The notes under the pieces were generated by a model, which saw nothing but the letters and a program-made list of their open reading frames with translations, searched no databases and was not told the DNA's origin. The position numbers and the translations under genes were made by a program. A stretch of DNA of 64,000 nt, taken from a bacterium. GTDB lineage: Bacteria; Zhuqueibacterota; Zhuqueibacteria; Residuimicrobiales; Krinioviventaceae. The DNA lies in assembly GCA_963693055.1 (NCBI GenBank), contig OY843751.1, positions 2,912,001-2,976,000 of the forward strand, given 5' to 3'. Below, one piece after another: positions 25,997-35,457 of the stretch (its first letter is position 1; each line of letters begins with the position of its first letter).

Positions 25997-27223
25997 CTAG
26001 TGATCACAAACATTATCACCGGTTTCAAGTGTATCATTTACATGACTAATTACCAGATTTTCAGGAGTATCAACAGAAGCTCCGGTAATAACATGCACCT
26101 TTTTCTCTTCAAACAGACTTTGTGCACGTTGTCCCATTCCACCAGCAATAATTGTATGAACCTGATTTTCATGGCACCATTCCGGCAATACACCGGGTTC
26201 ATGTGGTGGAGGATTCAAAACTTTACTTTTAACAATTTTATTCTCATTCTTGTCATAATCAATAAACGCAAATTTATCACTATGACCAAAATGCATACAC
26301 AGCTTGCCATCGCTTATAGGAATTGCGTACCGTACAATGTTTTCCGGCAAGGATTCACTTGACTTTTTAACTTCTTTTGGAGTTGTACTTACCGGCAATT
26401 CATCGCCTAAAGCGTTTACCATCTTTTCAATAATTGCCTGGATCTTTTTTGCAGTTTCGGATTTATTATAGAAATAAATATAGGGTCTGCCTTCATCGCT
26501 TGCAGTCACAATGTCCGGTTCTAAGGGAATCTGACCCAAAAAGTTCACACCCATATCTTTGGCCATTTCTTCACCACCACCAGATTTGAAAATATCAATT
26601 TTATCATGGCAATGCGGGCAAACAAAACCACTCATATTTTCAATTACTCCCAAAACCGGCAAATTTACTTGTTCGCAAAAATTAATAGATCGTCTCACAT
26701 CAGACACGGCAATGTCCTGAGGAGTAGTCACAACAACAGCACCTGAAGCATTTTTAATTATTTGAACGACTGATAAAGGTTCATCACCTGTTCCCGGGGG
26801 ACAGTCAATAATCAAATAATCCAGATCTCCCCAACTCACATCTTTGATCAATTGCTGTATTGCACCCATCTTCATGGGGCCGCGCCATATTACCGCATCG
26901 TCATTATTTTTTAACAGCATACCCAATGAGACGACTTTTAAATTGTTACCATATTGCATGGGAATCAATCCGTTTTCATCGGATTGCATTTTATCTTTGT
27001 CTAAACCTAAAAGTTTTGGAATACTGGGACCATGAAAATCAACATCAAGCAAGCCTGTCTTATATCCATCCAGACCCAATGAAATAGCAAGATTCGCAGC
27101 AACAGTGCTTTTGCCTACCCCACCTTTACCAGATAAAACCAGTATTTTGTGTTTAAATCGTTCCAGTGTTTTTTCAATTTCAATTTGTTCTAATACTCTG
27201 TCAGGATTTTGTTCATGATTCAT
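25997..27223 (-). CDS. apbC: Mrp/ApbC Fe-S carrier ATPase fused to a C-terminal NifB/NifX domain
   Basis: SGKGGVGKST, DCPPGTGDE, ENMSGFVCPHC; C-terminal HFGH...PPHEPG...GGMG...NVCDH. Confidence 0.92.
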   Translation of the reverse strand: MNHEQNPDRVLEQIEIEKTLERFKHKILVLSGKGGVGKSTVAANLAISLGLDGYKTGLLDVDFHGPSIPKLLGLDKDKMQSDENGLIPMQYGNNLKVVSLGMLLKNNDDAVIWRGPMKMGAIQQLIKDVSWGDLDYLIIDCPPGTGDEPLSVVQIIKNASGAVVVTTPQDIAVSDVRRSINFCEQVNLPVLGVIENMSGFVCPHCHDKIDIFKSGGGEEMAKDMGVNFLGQIPLEPDIVTASDEGRPYIYFYNKSETAKKIQAIIEKMVNALGDELPVSTTPKEVKKSSESLPENIVRYAIPISDGKLCMHFGHSDKFAFIDYDKNENKIVKSKVLNPPPHEPGVLPEWCHENQVHTIIAGGMGQRAQSLFEEKKVHVITGASVDTPENLVISHVNDTLETGDNVCDH

Positions 27224-27240
27224 AATATTTTATCCCTGCT

Positions 27241-28113
27241 TCAATTTGAATAGTTGAGTGATTTTAATACAGAATCCCAAATGGATTTATATATATCAAT
27301 TAATTGTTTATTGCCGTATTCAATAATACTTTTTCCTTCTTTTTGTGCAGAAAGAATATCAGTGTGATATGGAATTTTTCCAGCAATTTTTATTCCGTTT
27401 TCTTGACAAAAATTAAAAATTTTGCCAGAAAGGTCATAATTCAAATCATATTTATTAATGACTACCAATGGGTATACACCAAAATGCTTAACAAGTTCCA
27501 AAACTCTTTTCATATCATGTATTGCAGATAATGTAGGTTCAGTTACTACAAGAGCAATATCAGCTCCACCAAGAGACGCGATAACCGGGCAACCGGTTCC
27601 TGGAGGACCATCGGTCAGGATCAATGAAAAATCTTTATCTTCACATACTTTTTTTGCTTCATTTCTCACCAAGGAAACAAGTTTACCAGAATTTTCTTCA
27701 CCCGGTTCAAGCTGTGCATGAATAAATGGGAGCCCTTGTTTCGAGCTTGACTGGTACCACTCTCCATTTATTCTGTCATTGAAATTTATTGCATCCGATG
27801 GACAATTCCAAACACAAACACCGCAGCCCTCACAGGCCAATGGATTTACTGATAAATCAGAGGTTATTGCATTAAATCTACACACCTCCTTGCATTTACC
27901 ACATTCACTACATAATGATTTATCAATTTCTGCAGCTTTACCACCGGAAAAAGAATGCACTTTTTGATTCGATGGATTCAACAATAAAAATAAATCCGGA
28001 GCATCTACATCAGCATCCGCGAGTACAGCATTGCTAATCAATGAAGAAAATGCACCAGTCACAGATGTCTTGCCCGTTCCACCCTTACCGCTTATTATTA
28101 TAATTTCTTTCAT
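27241..28113 (-). CDS. MinD/CobQ-like P-loop ATPase with 2x[4Fe-4S] ferredoxin insert
   Basis: SGKGGTGKT; CSECGKC..VC and CEGCGVC...CP; DGPPGTGCP. Confidence 0.9.
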   Translation of the reverse strand: MKEIIIISGKGGTGKTSVTGAFSSLISNAVLADADVDAPDLFLLLNPSNQKVHSFSGGKAAEIDKSLCSECGKCKEVCRFNAITSDLSVNPLACEGCGVCVWNCPSDAINFNDRINGEWYQSSSKQGLPFIHAQLEPGEENSGKLVSLVRNEAKKVCEDKDFSLILTDGPPGTGCPVIASLGGADIALVVTEPTLSAIHDMKRVLELVKHFGVYPLVVINKYDLNYDLSGKIFNFCQENGIKIAGKIPYHTDILSAQKEGKSIIEYGNKQLIDIYKSIWDSVLKSLNYSN

Positions 28114-28955
28114 GATTTCAATCTATTTTCTATTTGTTCAAATAATTTAAGGAACGAAAGTTTAAATGCTGGAATCGAATTAATCAACAACTCCCCTTTC
28201 GAATACAATTCGGCAATGGTCCTGTCAAGAGGTATCTTTATATGTATTGGTATATCATTTTCATATGCATAGTTCTTGACATCAGGATAATTGGTGTCGC
28301 TTTTATTTAACACAATTCCAAAAGGAGTGTTTAATTTTTTAACAACTTTGACAGCCAGCTTGAGATCATTAAATCCAAAAGGAGAATCTTCAGCAACAAG
28401 AATAATATAATCCGAATCACGCATTGCTTCCACAGCAGGACAAGCAGTTCCGGGTGGAGAATCAATTATATTGATTACTGTGTCATCAATATATTCCTTG
28501 ACTGCATTTATAACCGGTGGTGATTTTGCTTCTCCTATTGTCAATAATCCTGAATATACCTTGATTGATCCACTTGAACCTGATTTTACAAGTCCAGTAG
28601 AATGTTCACGTTCTGAAATTGCATTTTCCGGACAGGCTATTGTACACCCTCCACAGGCATGACACAATTCAGGAAAAACCAAAACCTGCTTGCCAAAAAC
28701 AGAAATTGCGTTAAATTCACATACTTGCCCACATTGGTTGCACAAATTACATTTTTGATGATCAATTTCAGGCACCAATATATTTACAGGATTCTCTGTT
28801 TCAACAAGAGAATTCATAAAAATATCAACATTGGGGGCTTCAACATCACAATCCAAAAGCTGTACATGCTGTTTTTCACTCAATACTGCCGCCAAATTGG
28901 TTGAAACAAGTGTTTTACCTGTTCCCCCCTTGCCGCTTGCAATAACAATATTCAT
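28110..28955 (-). CDS. MinD/CobQ-like P-loop ATPase with 2x[4Fe-4S] ferredoxin insert
   Basis: SGKGGTGKT; CNLCNQC...C and CHACGGC...CP; DSPPGTACP. Confidence 0.9.
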   Translation of the reverse strand: MNIVIASGKGGTGKTLVSTNLAAVLSEKQHVQLLDCDVEAPNVDIFMNSLVETENPVNILVPEIDHQKCNLCNQCGQVCEFNAISVFGKQVLVFPELCHACGGCTIACPENAISEREHSTGLVKSGSSGSIKVYSGLLTIGEAKSPPVINAVKEYIDDTVINIIDSPPGTACPAVEAMRDSDYIILVAEDSPFGFNDLKLAVKVVKKLNTPFGIVLNKSDTNYPDVKNYAYENDIPIHIKIPLDRTIAELYSKGELLINSIPAFKLSFLKLFEQIENRLKS

Positions 28956-28964
28956 AAAATATAT

Positions 28965-29174
28965 TTACCTTTGTTTCGTCATTTTAACACCACAATCAGG
29001 ACACTCGGTTTGCGAACAAGGCACACCACGTTGATGGGTAACAATTTTACCACAGGATGAGCAAAAACAGTTACCACCTGAACCTATATTACCACCTTTA
29101 CCGCCTCTAGAGTTTCCCAAATTTTTTCCACGTCCTGGCCCAGATGTAGGGCCTGTTCCATCGCCGCCTGGCAT
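28965..29174 (-). CDS. Small Gly-rich, Cys-rich protein (DUF5320-like N-terminus, metal ribbon)
   Basis: MPGGDGTGP; CFCSSCG...GVPC...CPDCG. Confidence 0.85.
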   Translation of the reverse strand: MPGGDGTGPTSGPGRGKNLGNSRGGKGGNIGSGGNCFCSSCGKIVTHQRGVPCSQTECPDCGVKMTKQR

Positions 29175-29191
29175 ACTAAACTCCTTTGGTT

Positions 29192-29560
29192 TTATGCCCA
29201 GTGCCCCTCTACATCTGCACCGGAAGCCAATTCCAATTGATTGTTATTAAACGCATCCAAAGCATCTTGAACTGTGCCTTTTATACCAATAAAAATCTTG
29301 ACCTCGGCTGCATTCAAAGCACGGAATGCTTTAGGTCCGCAATGACCGGTTAACAATATATCTGCATTTAAATCTGTAACATGCTTGGCCGCCTGAATTC
29401 CCGCACCAGAAGGTGTATTTAATACCTGGTTATTATCCGCAAATTCAAATGTATTGCTTTCAGTATCAAAAATTACAAAGCCCTTTGCCCGTCCAAAACG
29501 TTCATCAACCGGGCTTGACAGGTCTGAACCTGTACTTGAAATTACTATTTTCATATCCAT
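29192..29560 (-). CDS. NifB/NifX family FeMo-cofactor-binding-domain protein
   Basis: RFGRA, GAGIQAA, TGHCGPKAF, VEGHW. Confidence 0.9.
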   Translation of the reverse strand: MDMKIVISSTGSDLSSPVDERFGRAKGFVIFDTESNTFEFADNNQVLNTPSGAGIQAAKHVTDLNADILLTGHCGPKAFRALNAAEVKIFIGIKGTVQDALDAFNNNQLELASGADVEGHWA

Positions 29561-29564
29561 TGCC

Positions 29565-29939
29565 CTATTTTAATTCATTAATTTTGTTAATAAAATCATT
29601 TAATGCTGCCTGATGGCTTTTCAAAGTTTCAAACCATAGCATCAAATTATCTCTTCCCATTTGAGTTATTGTATAGAGTCGTTTTGCAGGGCCAGACCCC
29701 GAAGTGTCCCATTGTGATTCTACCATTTGATTATCTTCCAAATGGCGAAGCATTCGATAGATCGCCCCGGGATCTGCAGATTCATCAAAAAAACCAACGG
29801 TTGGAAGATCATTCATCAACTCATATCCATGACGAGAATGCTTCCATAATAAATACAAAATTGAAGGTTCTATCCAACGAGTTCTTCTTCCACGATAACA
29901 TCCACATCCGGTAGTATCTCTGTTTGCAAAACTATTCAT
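29565..29939 (-). CDS. PadR family transcriptional regulator
   Basis: HGYEL, GAIYRMLRHLE, W....GPAKRLYTIT..G; N-terminal CGC. Confidence 0.9.
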   Translation of the reverse strand: MNSFANRDTTGCGCYRGRRTRWIEPSILYLLWKHSRHGYELMNDLPTVGFFDESADPGAIYRMLRHLEDNQMVESQWDTSGSGPAKRLYTITQMGRDNLMLWFETLKSHQAALNDFINKINELK

Positions 29940-31731: not shown

Positions 31732-33075
31732 ATGAAATTACAATTAATGCGTATTGTATTTTTATTGTTAATTTCTGTATCGTTAACTCTGGGCCAAACT
31801 GCTGGCGAAGAGGCTCTGGGATCACGTTCTTACGACGATTATGAAAATCCCAAAGCTTGCTACAGCTGCCATGTAGACATTTATATGCAGTGGACCCAGG
31901 CAATGATGTCCCAGGCGTACACACATCACTGGGATGAAATTGAGTATTTTGACCTCGCAGTTGCACATGCAGAGGTTGATCCAAGTTTCAAAGGTCCGGT
32001 AGATGGCTGTAATGGCTGCCATACACCAATGGCATACCTGGCCGGCGATGTAACTCCTCCCCGACCGTCTGAAAATACCCGAGCGAACGAAAGTGTGAAT
32101 TGCGATATTTGCCACACAATCACAGGATTTAAAGACGAACCCAATTTTAATTTCAACTTTTATTCAGATCCTGGTAGAACCAAATATGGAACAAAACCTG
32201 GTCTAGTTTCACCTCACCATGTAACAAAAGCAAAAGACATTTATGGAGAAGCTAAATTCTGTGGAGCTTGCCATAACGAGAAAAACCCGGTTGGAATATG
32301 GGTTAAATCTACTCAACTTGAATGGGAAGAAGGTCCCTATTCTAAAGAAGGTGTACCTTGTCATCAATGCCATATGCCAAAAGCTTTGGGCAAAAATGCA
32401 AAAATGTCTGAAGAAAGTATGGTTGCTCAACACTTGTTTCATGGCGCGCATGATCCCGGCAAAGTTGGTGGTGCAATTGAATTGCGTATTCATCCCGAAC
32501 AACGCGAATATGAGTACGATGAAAAAATAGTTGTTAAAGTACAGTTATTTAACGGAAAAGCGGGGCACAAAGTACCCACCGGTTCAGTTGAAGACCGTAT
32601 CATGTGGCTGCATGTTACAGCTACAGATGAAAATGGCAAAGTCTATCATCTGCCAGTAGACCAAAAGGGATTTGATGGTGAAGAATACACAATTGCATCT
32701 GATGAACTTGCATATGTGGATTTGGGAATACCTAAAAAAGATCCCAATTTTAAGGGTGTTCAAAGAGATGGCGTGCCCATTGGTGATAGAATATTTAGAA
32801 TGCCCTATTTTGATAAAAATGGCATTATGACAATCATGCAATGGAACACAGCCTCTTTGGGTGTAGATTATCGCATTGGTCCAAGAGAAACCAAAATTGA
32901 GACCTTTACCTGGCAAATGCCTGATGATATCCCACTTGGTAAAATCACATTCAAGGCTGAATTGAATTATCAAAAACTGGTAAAACCTGTTGCGGATTAT
33001 TTAGGTGTGCCGGAAGAAGAAAGCGAAATTATACCGGTTAACCAGGCACTTACCTGGATTGAAATTTACGACTAG
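31732..33075 (+). CDS. Exported pentaheme c-type cytochrome (c554/c552-like)
   Basis: Signal peptide; five CxxCH motifs: CYSCH, CNGCH, CDICH, CGACH, CHQCH. Confidence 0.9.
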   Translation: MKLQLMRIVFLLLISVSLTLGQTAGEEALGSRSYDDYENPKACYSCHVDIYMQWTQAMMSQAYTHHWDEIEYFDLAVAHAEVDPSFKGPVDGCNGCHTPMAYLAGDVTPPRPSENTRANESVNCDICHTITGFKDEPNFNFNFYSDPGRTKYGTKPGLVSPHHVTKAKDIYGEAKFCGACHNEKNPVGIWVKSTQLEWEEGPYSKEGVPCHQCHMPKALGKNAKMSEESMVAQHLFHGAHDPGKVGGAIELRIHPEQREYEYDEKIVVKVQLFNGKAGHKVPTGSVEDRIMWLHVTATDENGKVYHLPVDQKGFDGEEYTIASDELAYVDLGIPKKDPNFKGVQRDGVPIGDRIFRMPYFDKNGIMTIMQWNTASLGVDYRIGPRETKIETFTWQMPDDIPLGKITFKAELNYQKLVKPVADYLGVPEEESEIIPVNQALTWIEIYD

Positions 33076-33085
33076 GGAGAAAAAT

Positions 33086-34261
33086 ATGAAAAAATTTGCA
33101 GGAGTAATAATTGCAGTAATTCTTTTGGCATTCTTTATTCAAGATGCCAGCGCAATACCAGCATTTGCCAGACGTTACAAACTTTCTTGTAACACCTGTC
33201 ACAGTCCAATTCCCAGATTAAAACCGTACGGCGATGAATTTGCAGGAAATGGTTTTATTCTCAAAGAAGAAGAAAAGGAACGCGACTATATTACTGCCGG
33301 TGATGATATGTTGTGGCTAAACAAAGACTTTCCGGTTGGCGTACGCTTTGATGCATATGCACAATATGATCAGGACCAAGATGTTGATAAAGATCTGCAA
33401 TCTCCCTGGGGAATAAAATTATTGTCCGGTGGTACAGTCTATAAAAATATAGGTTACTATTTTTATTTTTACATGTCTGAACGCGGAGAGGTTGCAGGTA
33501 TTGAAGATGCTTATTTACATTTTGACAATGTAGGTGGCTCTCAATTAGATATTTTGGTTGGTCAGTTTCAAACATCGGATCCATTAATGAAACGCGAACT
33601 CCGACTCACATTTGAAGATTATGCCATTTACAAAACAAGTATTGGTAGTTCAAGTACAAACCTGGCGTATGATCGTGGAGTTATGTTTATGTATGGTCTT
33701 GAGCAAACAGGTACAGATATTATAGCCATGGTTGTTAACGGTAATGGTAAAGATGAAGCCGGTGACGACAAAAAATTTGATAATGACGCCAATAAAAATT
33801 TAGGGTTCAGAGTAGCTCAAGGTATTGGAGAACTCGTGTCCATTGGTGGATACTATTATCTGGGTAAAGAAACCATGCTGAATTATCTGGATGATAAATT
33901 TGAAAACGAGATCACATACATTGGTGTTGATGGGCATATGACTGCTGGCCCCCTGGCATTTACAGGGCAATGGCTCAGACGTAAAGATACCAATCCATAT
34001 TTTGCATATACGGGTATGGAATACGAAGGCGAAGGCATAGTAGCTGAACTTGTTATTTCACCACAGCTTGATCGTTCTCGTTTTTATCTTACAGCACTAT
34101 ATAATCGCATTGATCATGATATAGACGCATATGATTATCAGACAGCAACTTTGAGCGGCACCTATCTTGTTGCGCGCAACCTGCGTCTTATTGCTGAATA
34201 TACCCGGGATCTGGAATTAGATAAAAACAGAGTTACAATTGGCTTGGTAAGTGGATTTTAG
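33086..34261 (+). CDS. Cyc2-like fused monoheme cytochrome-porin
   Basis: Signal peptide ASA|IPAFARRY-x3-CNTCH-x4-RL..YG..F..NGF; amphipathic beta-strand body; C-terminal Phe; start moved to the ATG at 33086 (GGAG RBS). Confidence 0.8.
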   Translation: MKKFAGVIIAVILLAFFIQDASAIPAFARRYKLSCNTCHSPIPRLKPYGDEFAGNGFILKEEEKERDYITAGDDMLWLNKDFPVGVRFDAYAQYDQDQDVDKDLQSPWGIKLLSGGTVYKNIGYYFYFYMSERGEVAGIEDAYLHFDNVGGSQLDILVGQFQTSDPLMKRELRLTFEDYAIYKTSIGSSSTNLAYDRGVMFMYGLEQTGTDIIAMVVNGNGKDEAGDDKKFDNDANKNLGFRVAQGIGELVSIGGYYYLGKETMLNYLDDKFENEITYIGVDGHMTAGPLAFTGQWLRRKDTNPYFAYTGMEYEGEGIVAELVISPQLDRSRFYLTALYNRIDHDIDAYDYQTATLSGTYLVARNLRLIAEYTRDLELDKNRVTIGLVSGF

Positions 34262-34286: not shown

Positions 34287-34319
34287 AAAAAAAAGCGGGA
34301 TACTCTCCCGCTTTTTTTT
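34287..34319. terminator. Bidirectional terminator
   Basis: A8-GCGGGA-TACTC-TCCCGC-T8 between convergent genes. Confidence 0.92.
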
Positions 34320-34320
34320 A

Positions 34321-35457
34321 TTAATACAGTGGTCTTAAAATTACATTTTGAATTCTAAGAATTCCATCTTGTTTTGAATGAAAAATCGCAATTTTTCCGG
34401 GTCTTACCATTTGCGTATAGGTTTGTTTATAAACACTCATCCCCACAACTTTGGCTTCAAGATAACGGCTTGAAGAAATAATTTGATAAAACGTCCAGGG
34501 GTATGGCCAATACGGACCCACATCCCATGCTTTATCTTTAGGAACTGAATTTACCAGCGCCATCGTTCCAGGATGGTCATAGAAATCAATCCGATAACCA
34601 GGATCATAGCTTTCATTCCAACGGACATAAAAGGCACCTTTGCGTGGATTTTCAAGATCATTTTCAACGTATGCCTGAAAATAAAAATCTTCATAGTCCT
34701 TGTCAGTTACAAGCCAGCCATCACCACCTGAACCAACAATCATATTGTCTACTACATCCCATTCTGCATAACCATATTGTACCCAATTGGACAAATCTTT
34801 ACCATTGAAAAGTTGAATTTCAGTGACTGGTGGTGCAGGTAATCGCTTCACCCAAATATTTTTAAATTCTACAGGATCACCATGATTTTGTAAGCCAATA
34901 GGGCCCGTACGCAATCTAAATTTTGTATACATGTCAGATTCAAAATTATATTCCTGAACCATAACATCATTAAGCCATACTGTACACATGGGCCATTCAA
35001 AACGGATATGATAGCGGTTCCACTCTCCTGCCGGCTTTTCCGCAATAGCCATTGCTGGCGAAACATCATAAATGGAACCGGTAGTATGCAAGAGGTCAGG
35101 ATTGCTATTATGAATCTGGATTTCAAATCCCAAACGTGACTCTCTACCAGACATGGGAACATGAAACAAAATGCCACTATTATGTCCCTTTGCAATTTTA
35201 AAATCCGCATAAAAATCAAAATTGCTATAGGATTCAAGTGTTTTAATTACATAAGGTACACTGGGTTTACCTAGACATTTGATAATACCATCCTGAATGA
35301 TCCACCGTCCACTGTCAGGTTCAATATTCCATCCGGTAAAATCTTTACCATTAAATAAAGATTTATATCCGGGACCGGGTGCTCCATCCGACCAATCAGA
35401 TGCAAACAAAAAATTCGACAATATTATCATTAATACCACAAGTAGCGTCTTTTTCAT
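34321..35457 (-). CDS. Exported DUF1080 (3-keto-disaccharide hydrolase-like) protein, two domains
   Basis: LFNGKD twice, NSG, FEIQI, GEWN, GPIGLQNHG, FKNI. Confidence 0.88.
   Translation of the reverse strand: MKKTLLVVLMIILSNFLFASDWSDGAPGPGYKSLFNGKDFTGWNIEPDSGRWIIQDGIIKCLGKPSVPYVIKTLESYSNFDFYADFKIAKGHNSGILFHVPMSGRESRLGFEIQIHNSNPDLLHTTGSIYDVSPAMAIAEKPAGEWNRYHIRFEWPMCTVWLNDVMVQEYNFESDMYTKFRLRTGPIGLQNHGDPVEFKNIWVKRLPAPPVTEIQLFNGKDLSNWVQYGYAEWDVVDNMIVGSGGDGWLVTDKDYEDFYFQAYVENDLENPRKGAFYVRWNESYDPGYRIDFYDHPGTMALVNSVPKDKAWDVGPYWPYPWTFYQIISSSRYLEAKVVGMSVYKQTYTQMVRPGKIAIFHSKQDGILRIQNVILRPLY

Follow-up and report, generated by a model that had tools for sequence, protein, structure and literature searches.

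What does a haem-bearing porin of the Cyc2 type do when its gene stands directly behind that of an exported pentahaem cytochrome? The question is raised by two genes in a stretch of 64,000 nucleotides (nt) of contig OY843751.1 (assembly GCA_963693055.1, positions 2,912,001 to 2,976,000), called the window here; gene 1 encodes the pentahaem protein and gene 2 the porin. An earlier note had read them as an outer-membrane-to-periplasm electron conduit, a candidate module for extracellular electron transfer. We find that the pair is a fixed unit in which the Cyc2-like porin accompanies a distinct clade of a known pentahaem fold. A respiratory module for extracellular electron transfer is not the best reading of it, because its neighbours include no recurrent inner-membrane partner and roughly half of the carriers gave no match to a haem-copper oxidase. 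We tentatively propose, holding it possible though short of probable, that the pair passes electrons from an outside reductant to periplasmic H2O2 (or O2/NO) and so would serve envelope defence rather than iron-based growth.

The two genes are separated by 10 nt, as the earlier note had described, and the ATG of gene 2 is preceded by GGAG. The terminator noted behind them was recovered as a hairpin of -18.1 kcal/mol (z -5.0), and none of 200 shuffles was equally good. For gene 2, 110 loci were found and 80 kept. The pentahaem gene was directly upstream of the porin gene in 77, and the remaining three had less than 20 nt of upstream DNA. A phylum set of 145 genomes was then scored with an orthologue cut of a strong match at no less than 43% identity for gene 2 and 53% for gene 1, and paralogue-like matches were dropped. 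Gene 2 was found in 84 genomes, gene 1 in 85, both in 83, and the two were adjacent in the same order in 81. Some exceptions came from contig ends (G110, G112, G082); true exceptions were G009, where the genes lie apart, and G052, where the pentahaem gene is followed by an ankyrin gene. Homologues at E<=0.001 numbered 2837 and 2620 for the two genes, which together with the conserved gene order places the pair beyond chance. The named close homologues of both genes belong mainly to candidate division KSB1, and judged by these names the host probably does so too. By record titles and tree labels, the pair also occurs in Calditrichota, Krumholzibacteriota, Eisenbacteria, Gemmatimonadota and Marinimicrobia, and no cultured carrier was found among the 10 clusters checked.

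Cyc2 has been defined by AXPXFAR[Q/K][T/Y], followed by CxxCH and then PXL, in a protein of at least 365 amino acid residues (aa; Keffer et al., 10.1101/228056). The mature N-terminus quoted in the earlier note, the single CxxCH and the C-terminal Phe were all present in gene 2. C35-H39 is its sole CxxCH and P43-R-L45, four residues past it, is the PXL motif; a single CxxCH and the PXL were kept in 84/84 close homologues (alignment A1). AXPXFAR and the Y are also present, with Arg at the [Q/K] position. The hallmark claimed before, PxFAR with a single CxxCH fused to a porin, therefore stands, but the full published motif deviates. The strict motif was found in 6/84 close and 21/71 wider homologues (alignment A3), the relaxed motif in 82/84 and 65/71, and by this comparison the Arg is a conservative change within one family. 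Met200 is a candidate distal haem ligand (92% in A1, 62% in A3).

The strand-rich body of gene 2 was modelled with AlphaFold2 from an 80-row alignment (pLDDT 90.7, pTM 0.87), which gave the expected beta-barrel, with 16 strands from residue 84 onward. The best structural matches were 16-strand porins, led by OprP (Z 25.6, root-mean-square deviation (rmsd) 2.9, 302 aligned) with MtrB at Z 11.9, and the barrel was nearest to the anion-selective porins OprP and Omp32. A 16-strand porin like OprP/OprO has been proposed for Cyc2 (PMC13741234). No Pfam or NCBIfam family matched gene 2; its comparison with the sequences of solved structures gave none at E<=1, and the profile version gave unrelated weak matches only. 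The gene 2 profile aligned at 98% with a plasmid protein of Methylocystis over its N-terminal 110 columns, the gene of that protein preceding three c-type cytochrome genes; plasmid-borne Cyc2 homologues beside genes for high-potential iron-sulfur proteins (HiPIP) and c-type cytochromes share this N-terminal homology. With its signal peptide, AXPXFAR-type motif, single N-terminal CxxCH, PXL, length above 365 aa and predicted C-terminal 16-strand barrel, gene 2 resembles Cyc2 of A. ferrooxidans, Cyc2PV-1 of Mariprofundus and Cyt572 of Leptospirillum, from which it differs by the Arg. Sequence and model thus support gene 2 as a Cyc2-like fused cytochrome-porin, predicted to lie in the outer membrane. 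Its family gave one match in the host genome (G000), and a six-frame list of CxxCH motifs there contained no second Cyc2-like gene. Fusions of a pentahaem to the porin were absent among 3867 candidates of 686-2000 aa, which is weak evidence.

In gene 1 the five CxxCH motifs were confirmed (C43, C93, C124, C177 and C210), and there is no other Cys. Both proteins open with a hydrophobic helix in their models, which was judged by eye to be a Sec signal peptide. The best PDB match of gene 1 was 5ZE8, the c552 of T. tepidum (24% identity), and the gene 1 model (pLDDT 87.5) matched it over the whole chain (Z 26.6, rmsd 3.4, 338 aligned; structure search E 3.7e-17). With five CxxCH, an Ig-like C-terminal domain and the predicted 5ZE8 fold, gene 1 belongs to the PHC family, whose whole-chain fold it shares with 5ZE8 and the cable-bacterium members (PMC11976967). 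This family is related to the AvECN nanowire (PMC11976967). A nanowire reading of gene 1 is not favoured, because no filament structure was among its structural matches.

The best family match of gene 1 was NCBIfam ExtKL (NF040886, E 2.4e-14). ExtKL is MccSep (GSU2937-2936), a periplasmic polysulfide reductase of Geobacter sulfurreducens whose haem 2, ligated by His and Cys239 beside the selenocysteine Sec325, is catalytic, the other four haems being bis-His; mutating Cys239 or Sec325 severely lowers its activity (PMC13510729). The two proteins share five CxxCH, a periplasmic location (predicted for gene 1), the Ig-like C-terminal domain and the motif order around the active site. In gene 1, alignment to 5ZE8 and MccSep-family rows placed Lys192 at the Cys of the C-x-T motif, which is Cys239 in MccSep. 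Ser285 replaces the catalytic selenocysteine (GHKVPTGS against GHSIPDGU). The conserved loop V-E-D-R comes next, and the more distant orthologues read S-A-E-E-R here. Met59 replaces the His of a W-x-x-S-x-H motif that is found in 5ZE8, MccSep and three paralogues (L081, L085, L086); in the 5ZE8 alignment Lys192 stands opposite the Cys and Met59 opposite the His. Met59, Lys192, Ser285, V-E-D-R and the five CxxCH were each present in 117/117 close homologues (alignment A2). A pattern count in the fetched loci found Met/Lys/Ser in 68/76 pentahaems; among the other eight, four had Lys/Ser and an A/S-M-M stretch misread by the pattern, and four were unlinked paralogues with Ile, Glu, Glu or Gln at the Lys192 position.

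Since Lys192 stands for the ligand Cys, Ser285 for the selenocysteine and Met59 for the conserved His throughout, gene 1 is, by sequence and model, a distinct clade of the known pentahaem fold and not MccSep; the residues that are catalytic in its sulfur-reducing relative are missing from this predicted periplasmic protein. That gene 1 is a polysulfide reductase of the MccSep type, with gene 2 as a polysulfide porin, is highly improbable: the fold family and the ExtKL match speak for it, against which stand a score of 52.8 bits where the family cut-off is 250, Lys and Ser in place of Cys239 and Sec325 even though G000 has selA, and no Cys or selenocysteine in the G-H-x-x-P-x-G-U loop. The structures of MccSep (9WT8-9WTC) were absent from the PDB sequence and structure matches of gene 1. 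The MccSep catalytic positions hold an invariant Lys and Ser with V-E-D-R, whereas the unlinked paralogues vary at the ligand position, and an enzyme-type protein is therefore favoured. Of the conduit claimed earlier, the fused cytochrome-porin in a fixed pair has held, but a plain wire is an incomplete description of a protein on the MccSep-family scaffold with invariant residues of its own. Lys192 is predicted to be a labile haem ligand, giving a haem with His/Lys ligation. Met59 may be a ligand as well and would give a His/Met haem, although the invariant His65 could take its place. Lys ligands of haem are labile, as in TsdA, and His/Met ligation raises the redox potential.

Further pentahaems of this family were seen in the phylum. 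G000 has two (L081:6693-7820, C1:2766692; L083:6346-8283, C1:4628345) with His or another residue at the position of Met59, and the 645-aa one of these has a weak C-terminal sorting domain of the type IX secretion system type, which suggests that it is secreted. The gene 1 orthologues in L094, L096 and L107, all of one family, have four canonical CxxCH only, the first motif being apparently altered. Other paralogues have a match to the cytochrome c peroxidase (CCP)/MauG family no more than about 1 kb away (G051:C161, G047:C571, G052:C68, G054:C56).

Both folds, the Cyc2 family and clusters of a pentahaem with a porin (ext, ptd) were known already. Cyc2 homologues have been reported from these phyla (PMC9769843, PMC10732223, PMC8478452). 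Our literature searches found no description of the gene pair, of the Met/Lys/Ser clade or of a link between Cyc2 and antioxidant genes, most subscription papers lying outside their coverage. Whereas ExtI of the ext cluster is described as a porin and ext has further cytochromes (PMC11976967), gene 2 bears a haem. Unlike gene 1, the cable-bacterium PHC genes have no nearby porin in the available text of PMC11976967. PtdAB of marine Alphaproteobacteria, of unknown function, likewise has a pentahaem bearing a C-terminal beta-sandwich followed by a porin, but ptd is described as seven genes including inner-membrane and further multihaem parts, and the available description gives no haem for PtdB (10.1101/2023.11.21.568154). 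In MtrAB/MtoAB a decahaem is threaded through a large haem-free barrel; the pair, in contrast, has a two-domain protein with five haems and, by its model, a 16-strand barrel with its own CxxCH. The partner of gene 2 also differs from those of Cyc2, being a pentahaem on an enzyme scaffold and not Cyc1, rusticyanin or HiPIP.

If the pair served respiration, respiratory genes would be looked for beside it and in its carriers. In the 80 loci the open reading frames (ORFs) were clustered, and 15 cluster representatives and 150 of 259 further ORFs were scanned for families. No recurrent inner-membrane redox partner or respiratory gene was found among these neighbours. A ResB-CcsA fusion for haem c maturation was near the pair in 6/80 loci (L010, L011, L016, L018, L020, L023). 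The host genome, a single 6.5-Mb contig that is 100% complete, matched alternative complex III (ACIII), a caa3-type oxidase, cytochrome bd, haem c maturation genes and selA. It gave no match to RuBisCO, CdhC, NrfA, molybdopterin oxidoreductases or CCP/MauG; the lack of RuBisCO and CdhC matches is consistent with a heterotroph and with the sugar-using host of the earlier note. In L082:4864-16696 (C1:2128863-2140695) the ACIII genes are joined to the caa3-type oxidase operon.

The COX1 family was matched strongly in 24 of the 84 carriers, weakly in 19 and not at all in 41, of which 28 were at least 90% complete; the weak matches are probably NO-reductase-like. Strong matches were thus found in 24/84 carriers compared with 34/61 non-carriers, in counts that ignore kinship between genomes, which are not independent, and that carry no P value. 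Neither COX1 nor bd was matched in 19/84 carriers, and 13 of these had a completeness of 90% or more, with genomes of 100% and 99% among them. Since the module is kept in genomes without a terminal oxidase match, aerobic iron respiration is hard to read from the pair.

These counts bear on respiratory uptake, in which the porin would oxidise Fe(II) and the pentahaem would be wired to either cytochrome c oxidase or ACIII, from which a heterotroph would gain additional energy. The higher potential of a His/Met haem would suit this, as would the ACIII and caa3 cluster of G000. For each of the three clusters, iron oxidase activity has been verified in one Cyc2, the function of Cluster 3 being rated most uncertain by the authors of the marker (10.1101/228056). 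Homologues from KSB1 and Calditrichota have been interpreted as iron oxidation, and about 75% of those from phyla including KSB1 were assigned to cluster III (PMC9769843), which for gene 2 is a lead only. We regard respiratory uptake as distinctly unlikely in view of the scarcity of strong COX1 matches, the 19 carriers without either oxidase type and the missing respiratory neighbours; moreover, a wire would not be expected to keep an invariant active-site loop. The iron oxidisers with Cyc2 also differ from the gene 2 carriers, about half of which have no haem-copper oxidase match, and from a host without RuBisCO or CdhC matches. In carriers that do have oxidases, the unit could have more than one use.

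The many carriers without oxidases would also suit the opposite direction, in which the pentahaem draws on the quinone pool and the porin haem delivers to soluble Fe(III) chelates or humic quinones. Cyc2 potentials span a wide range, as low as -130 mV (PMC13692758), and the T. tepidum relative is termed low-potential in a reference title. Such an outward conduit appears quite improbable to us: no quinol dehydrogenase gene is linked, the larger multihaem proteins of G000 (49, 28, 20, 20 and 19 motifs) are better suited, and it leaves unexplained both the antioxidant neighbours and the peroxidase-family partner of a sister clade, described below. These large cytochromes, encoded at C1:2005664-2009383 (49 CxxCH), 3833823-3838467 (20, 28 and 10 in a row), 2681458-2683263 (20) and 5906965-5909766 (19), are possibly separate systems of extracellular electron transfer.

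An analogue of the pair was found in G098 and G100, where both pair types coexist in one genome. Their second Cyc2-like gene, 22% identical to gene 2, lies 12 nt behind a dihaem gene of the bCcP/MauG family. This sister clade aligned with the gene 2 family over the full length in hhalign (99.9%). From metagenomes, 144 further loci were found and 80 kept, some of them near-copies. The bCcP/MauG-family gene preceded the sister Cyc2 in 64/64 loci whose upstream DNA extended to 400 nt or more, and a pentahaem did so in none. The layout is thus the same, an exported haem-enzyme-family gene, about 10 nt and a Cyc2-like porin in fixed pairing, whereas the partner fold is unrelated. Other distant Cyc2-like genes of the phylum stand beside a cupredoxin-like gene and long two-component-like genes (L088:2462-4447, L089:587-6372, L091, L092) or, in L087, before a dihaem cytochrome. 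Since these neighbours differ, pairing with a peroxidase is not general for Cyc2-like genes.

Antioxidant or iron-storage genes were counted with queries drawn from the 80 loci themselves and were near the pair in 17/80 loci, and in 9/36 near-full loci. A superoxide reductase (SOR) gene was found upstream within 5 kb on the same strand in 28 of 57 SOR-bearing carriers from six families, and within 160 nt in 20 carriers. Ten regions were fetched, nine selected for the SOR link and one being the SOR region of G000, and three of the ten had large antioxidant clusters around the pair. In L113 and L116 the order is ferritin, SOR, thiol peroxidase, pentahaem, porin and superoxide dismutase (SOD); in L114 rubrerythrins, ferritin, SOR and catalase precede the pair. 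The five Fe/Mn-SODs directly downstream of the pair all have a twin-arginine motif, which a sixth, 3.5 kb off on the opposite strand, does not have, and in L006 a Ni-SOD with a signal-like N-terminus takes the downstream position. An exported SOD beside the pair implies that H2O2 is produced in the periplasm.

The pentahaem might instead act on a nitrogen oxide, hydroxylamine, or a sulfur or selenium species, the porin supplying electrons or admitting the substrate. Multihaem enzymes are frequently promiscuous toward N and S substrates (PMC13510729), the nearest structural matches of the barrel are the anion-selective OprP and Omp32, and PtdAB and ExtI/ExtKL likewise combine the pentahaem family with a porin. 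YeeE-type sulfur transporters were near the pair in 2/80 loci. N- and S-cycle neighbours were nevertheless rare relative to oxidative-stress genes, and with no NrfA or molybdopterin-oxidoreductase match in G000 we consider such an enzyme unlikely.

Taken together, a self-contained circuit is the simplest account of the fixed pair, the enzyme-scaffold partner, the missing inner-membrane gene, the frequent lack of oxidases, the exported SODs and the peroxidase-family analogue. In the defence that we propose, a small reductant outside the cell, with Fe(II) as the likeliest candidate, would donate to the porin haem of gene 2, which would pass electrons inward to the periplasmic pentahaem chain of gene 1. 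The pentahaem itself would reduce H2O2 (or O2/NO) at haem 2, where the Lys ligand would be displaceable. The pair would need no inner-membrane partner and conserve no energy, and the unit would be an envelope defence in oxygen-exposed anaerobes and facultative heterotrophs. The folds in this scheme are predicted, and we infer the attachment of the haems, their His/Met and His/Lys ligation, the binding of the two proteins, the electron transfer between them, its inward direction, the Fe(II) donor and the peroxide acceptor. The narrower claim, that gene 1 is a new peroxidase (or O2/NO reductase) which arose on the MccSep scaffold by the change of Cys and selenocysteine to Lys and Ser and receives electrons from Fe(II) in the environment by way of a Cyc2 porin of its own, we consider somewhat unlikely.

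Several observations weigh against the defence reading. Antioxidant genes were missing from 63/80 loci, many of them short, and from 27/36 near-full loci. The window itself has no oxidative-stress neighbour; in G000 the SOR is 2.36 Mb away and the nearest SOD 106 kb, and its ACIII, caa3-type oxidase and bd could accept the electrons. On a quick tree of 77 rows, three short or broken rows being omitted, the antioxidant label fell on 12/34 rows of a KSB1-rich branch compared with 3/43 elsewhere, and the linkage amounted to eight changes of which only four were forced. Because of this concentration in one branch and the four forced changes, much of the antioxidant link would be inheritance. SOR, ferritin and rubrerythrin are cytoplasmic. 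Gibbs sampling of 67 upstream regions for a Fur/PerR-like motif gave only about 1 bit above shuffles. A shared regulatory motif was rejected, the best non-palindromic one being derived from the coding end of SOR. The absence of a CCP/MauG match from G000, and its presence in 8/84 carriers compared with 18/61 non-carriers by hand count, would favour the defence reading, but the contrast is confounded by lineage. The dihaem partner of the sister Cyc2 scored below the MauG and MbnH cut-offs, and its peroxidase activity is thus putative. Finally, peroxidase activity in the pentahaem family was not described in the literature found.

The features of the pair are listed in the table. The hairpin can, by its sequence, terminate both the pair and the convergent gene at 34321-35457, since it has a T-run on both strands; a terminator pattern scan reported it on the minus strand only. 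A promoter scan around the pair gave chance-level scores, and the G+C of the region is the same as that of the surroundings. The neighbours in the window are heptose biosynthesis, PadR, NifX-like, P-loop and sugar genes. At 25997-29939 on the minus strand a PadR regulator, a NifX-like protein, two 4Fe-4S MinD-like ATPases and an Mrp/NBP35-NifX fusion form a run that, from its sequences, probably serves metal-cluster assembly.

Table. Features of the gene pair (positions in the window) and loci of the sister Cyc2 clade (positions in the locus named)
Feature	Position	Strand	Description or basis
Gene 1, exported pentahaem cytochrome c	31732..33075	+	447 aa, PHC family; haem domain and C-terminal Ig-like domain
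Five CxxCH haem-binding motifs of gene 1, C43 to H214	31858..32373	+	Invariant, 117/117 rows
Met59 codon, gene 1	31906..31908	+	Alignment to 5ZE8; 117/117
Lys192 codon, gene 1	32305..32307	+	Alignment to 5ZE8; 117/117
Ser285 codon, gene 1	32584..32586	+	MccSep peptide in PMC13510729; 117/117
Spacer between genes 1 and 2, with ribosome-binding site of gene 2	33076..33085	+	10 nt, sequence inspection
Gene 2, Cyc2-like fused monohaem cytochrome-porin	33086..34261	+	391 aa, predicted 16-strand barrel, C-terminal Phe
Cyc2 signature in gene 2: A-x-P-x-F-A-R, CxxCH (C35-H39), P-x-L	33152..33220	+	Published definition and counts
Intrinsic-terminator-like hairpin, T-runs on both strands	34287..34319		Folding and shuffles
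Sister Cyc2 and dihaem loci	L120:4343-6682 (G100); L121:3813-6152 (G098); metagenome L126-L205		

The gene cyc2 is a marker for iron oxidation, and the subfamily of gene 2 is present in 84/145 genomes of the phylum, often without a match to an oxygen reductase. The question is testable, as the unit is small, both scaffold types have been expressed and assayed before, and the three invariant swaps allow mutational tests. If the pair serves defence, inventories of iron cycling in sediments would be inflated. If the narrower claim of a new peroxidase is true, the pair would form, together with the Cyc2 and bCcP/MauG-family pair, a class of circuits that carry outside electrons to periplasmic peroxide and that evolved twice with unrelated enzymes. 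At the envelope, such circuits would clear away the two Fenton reagents together. A large share of the cyc2 genes called in metagenomes of anoxic sediments would then mark defence and not iron-based growth.

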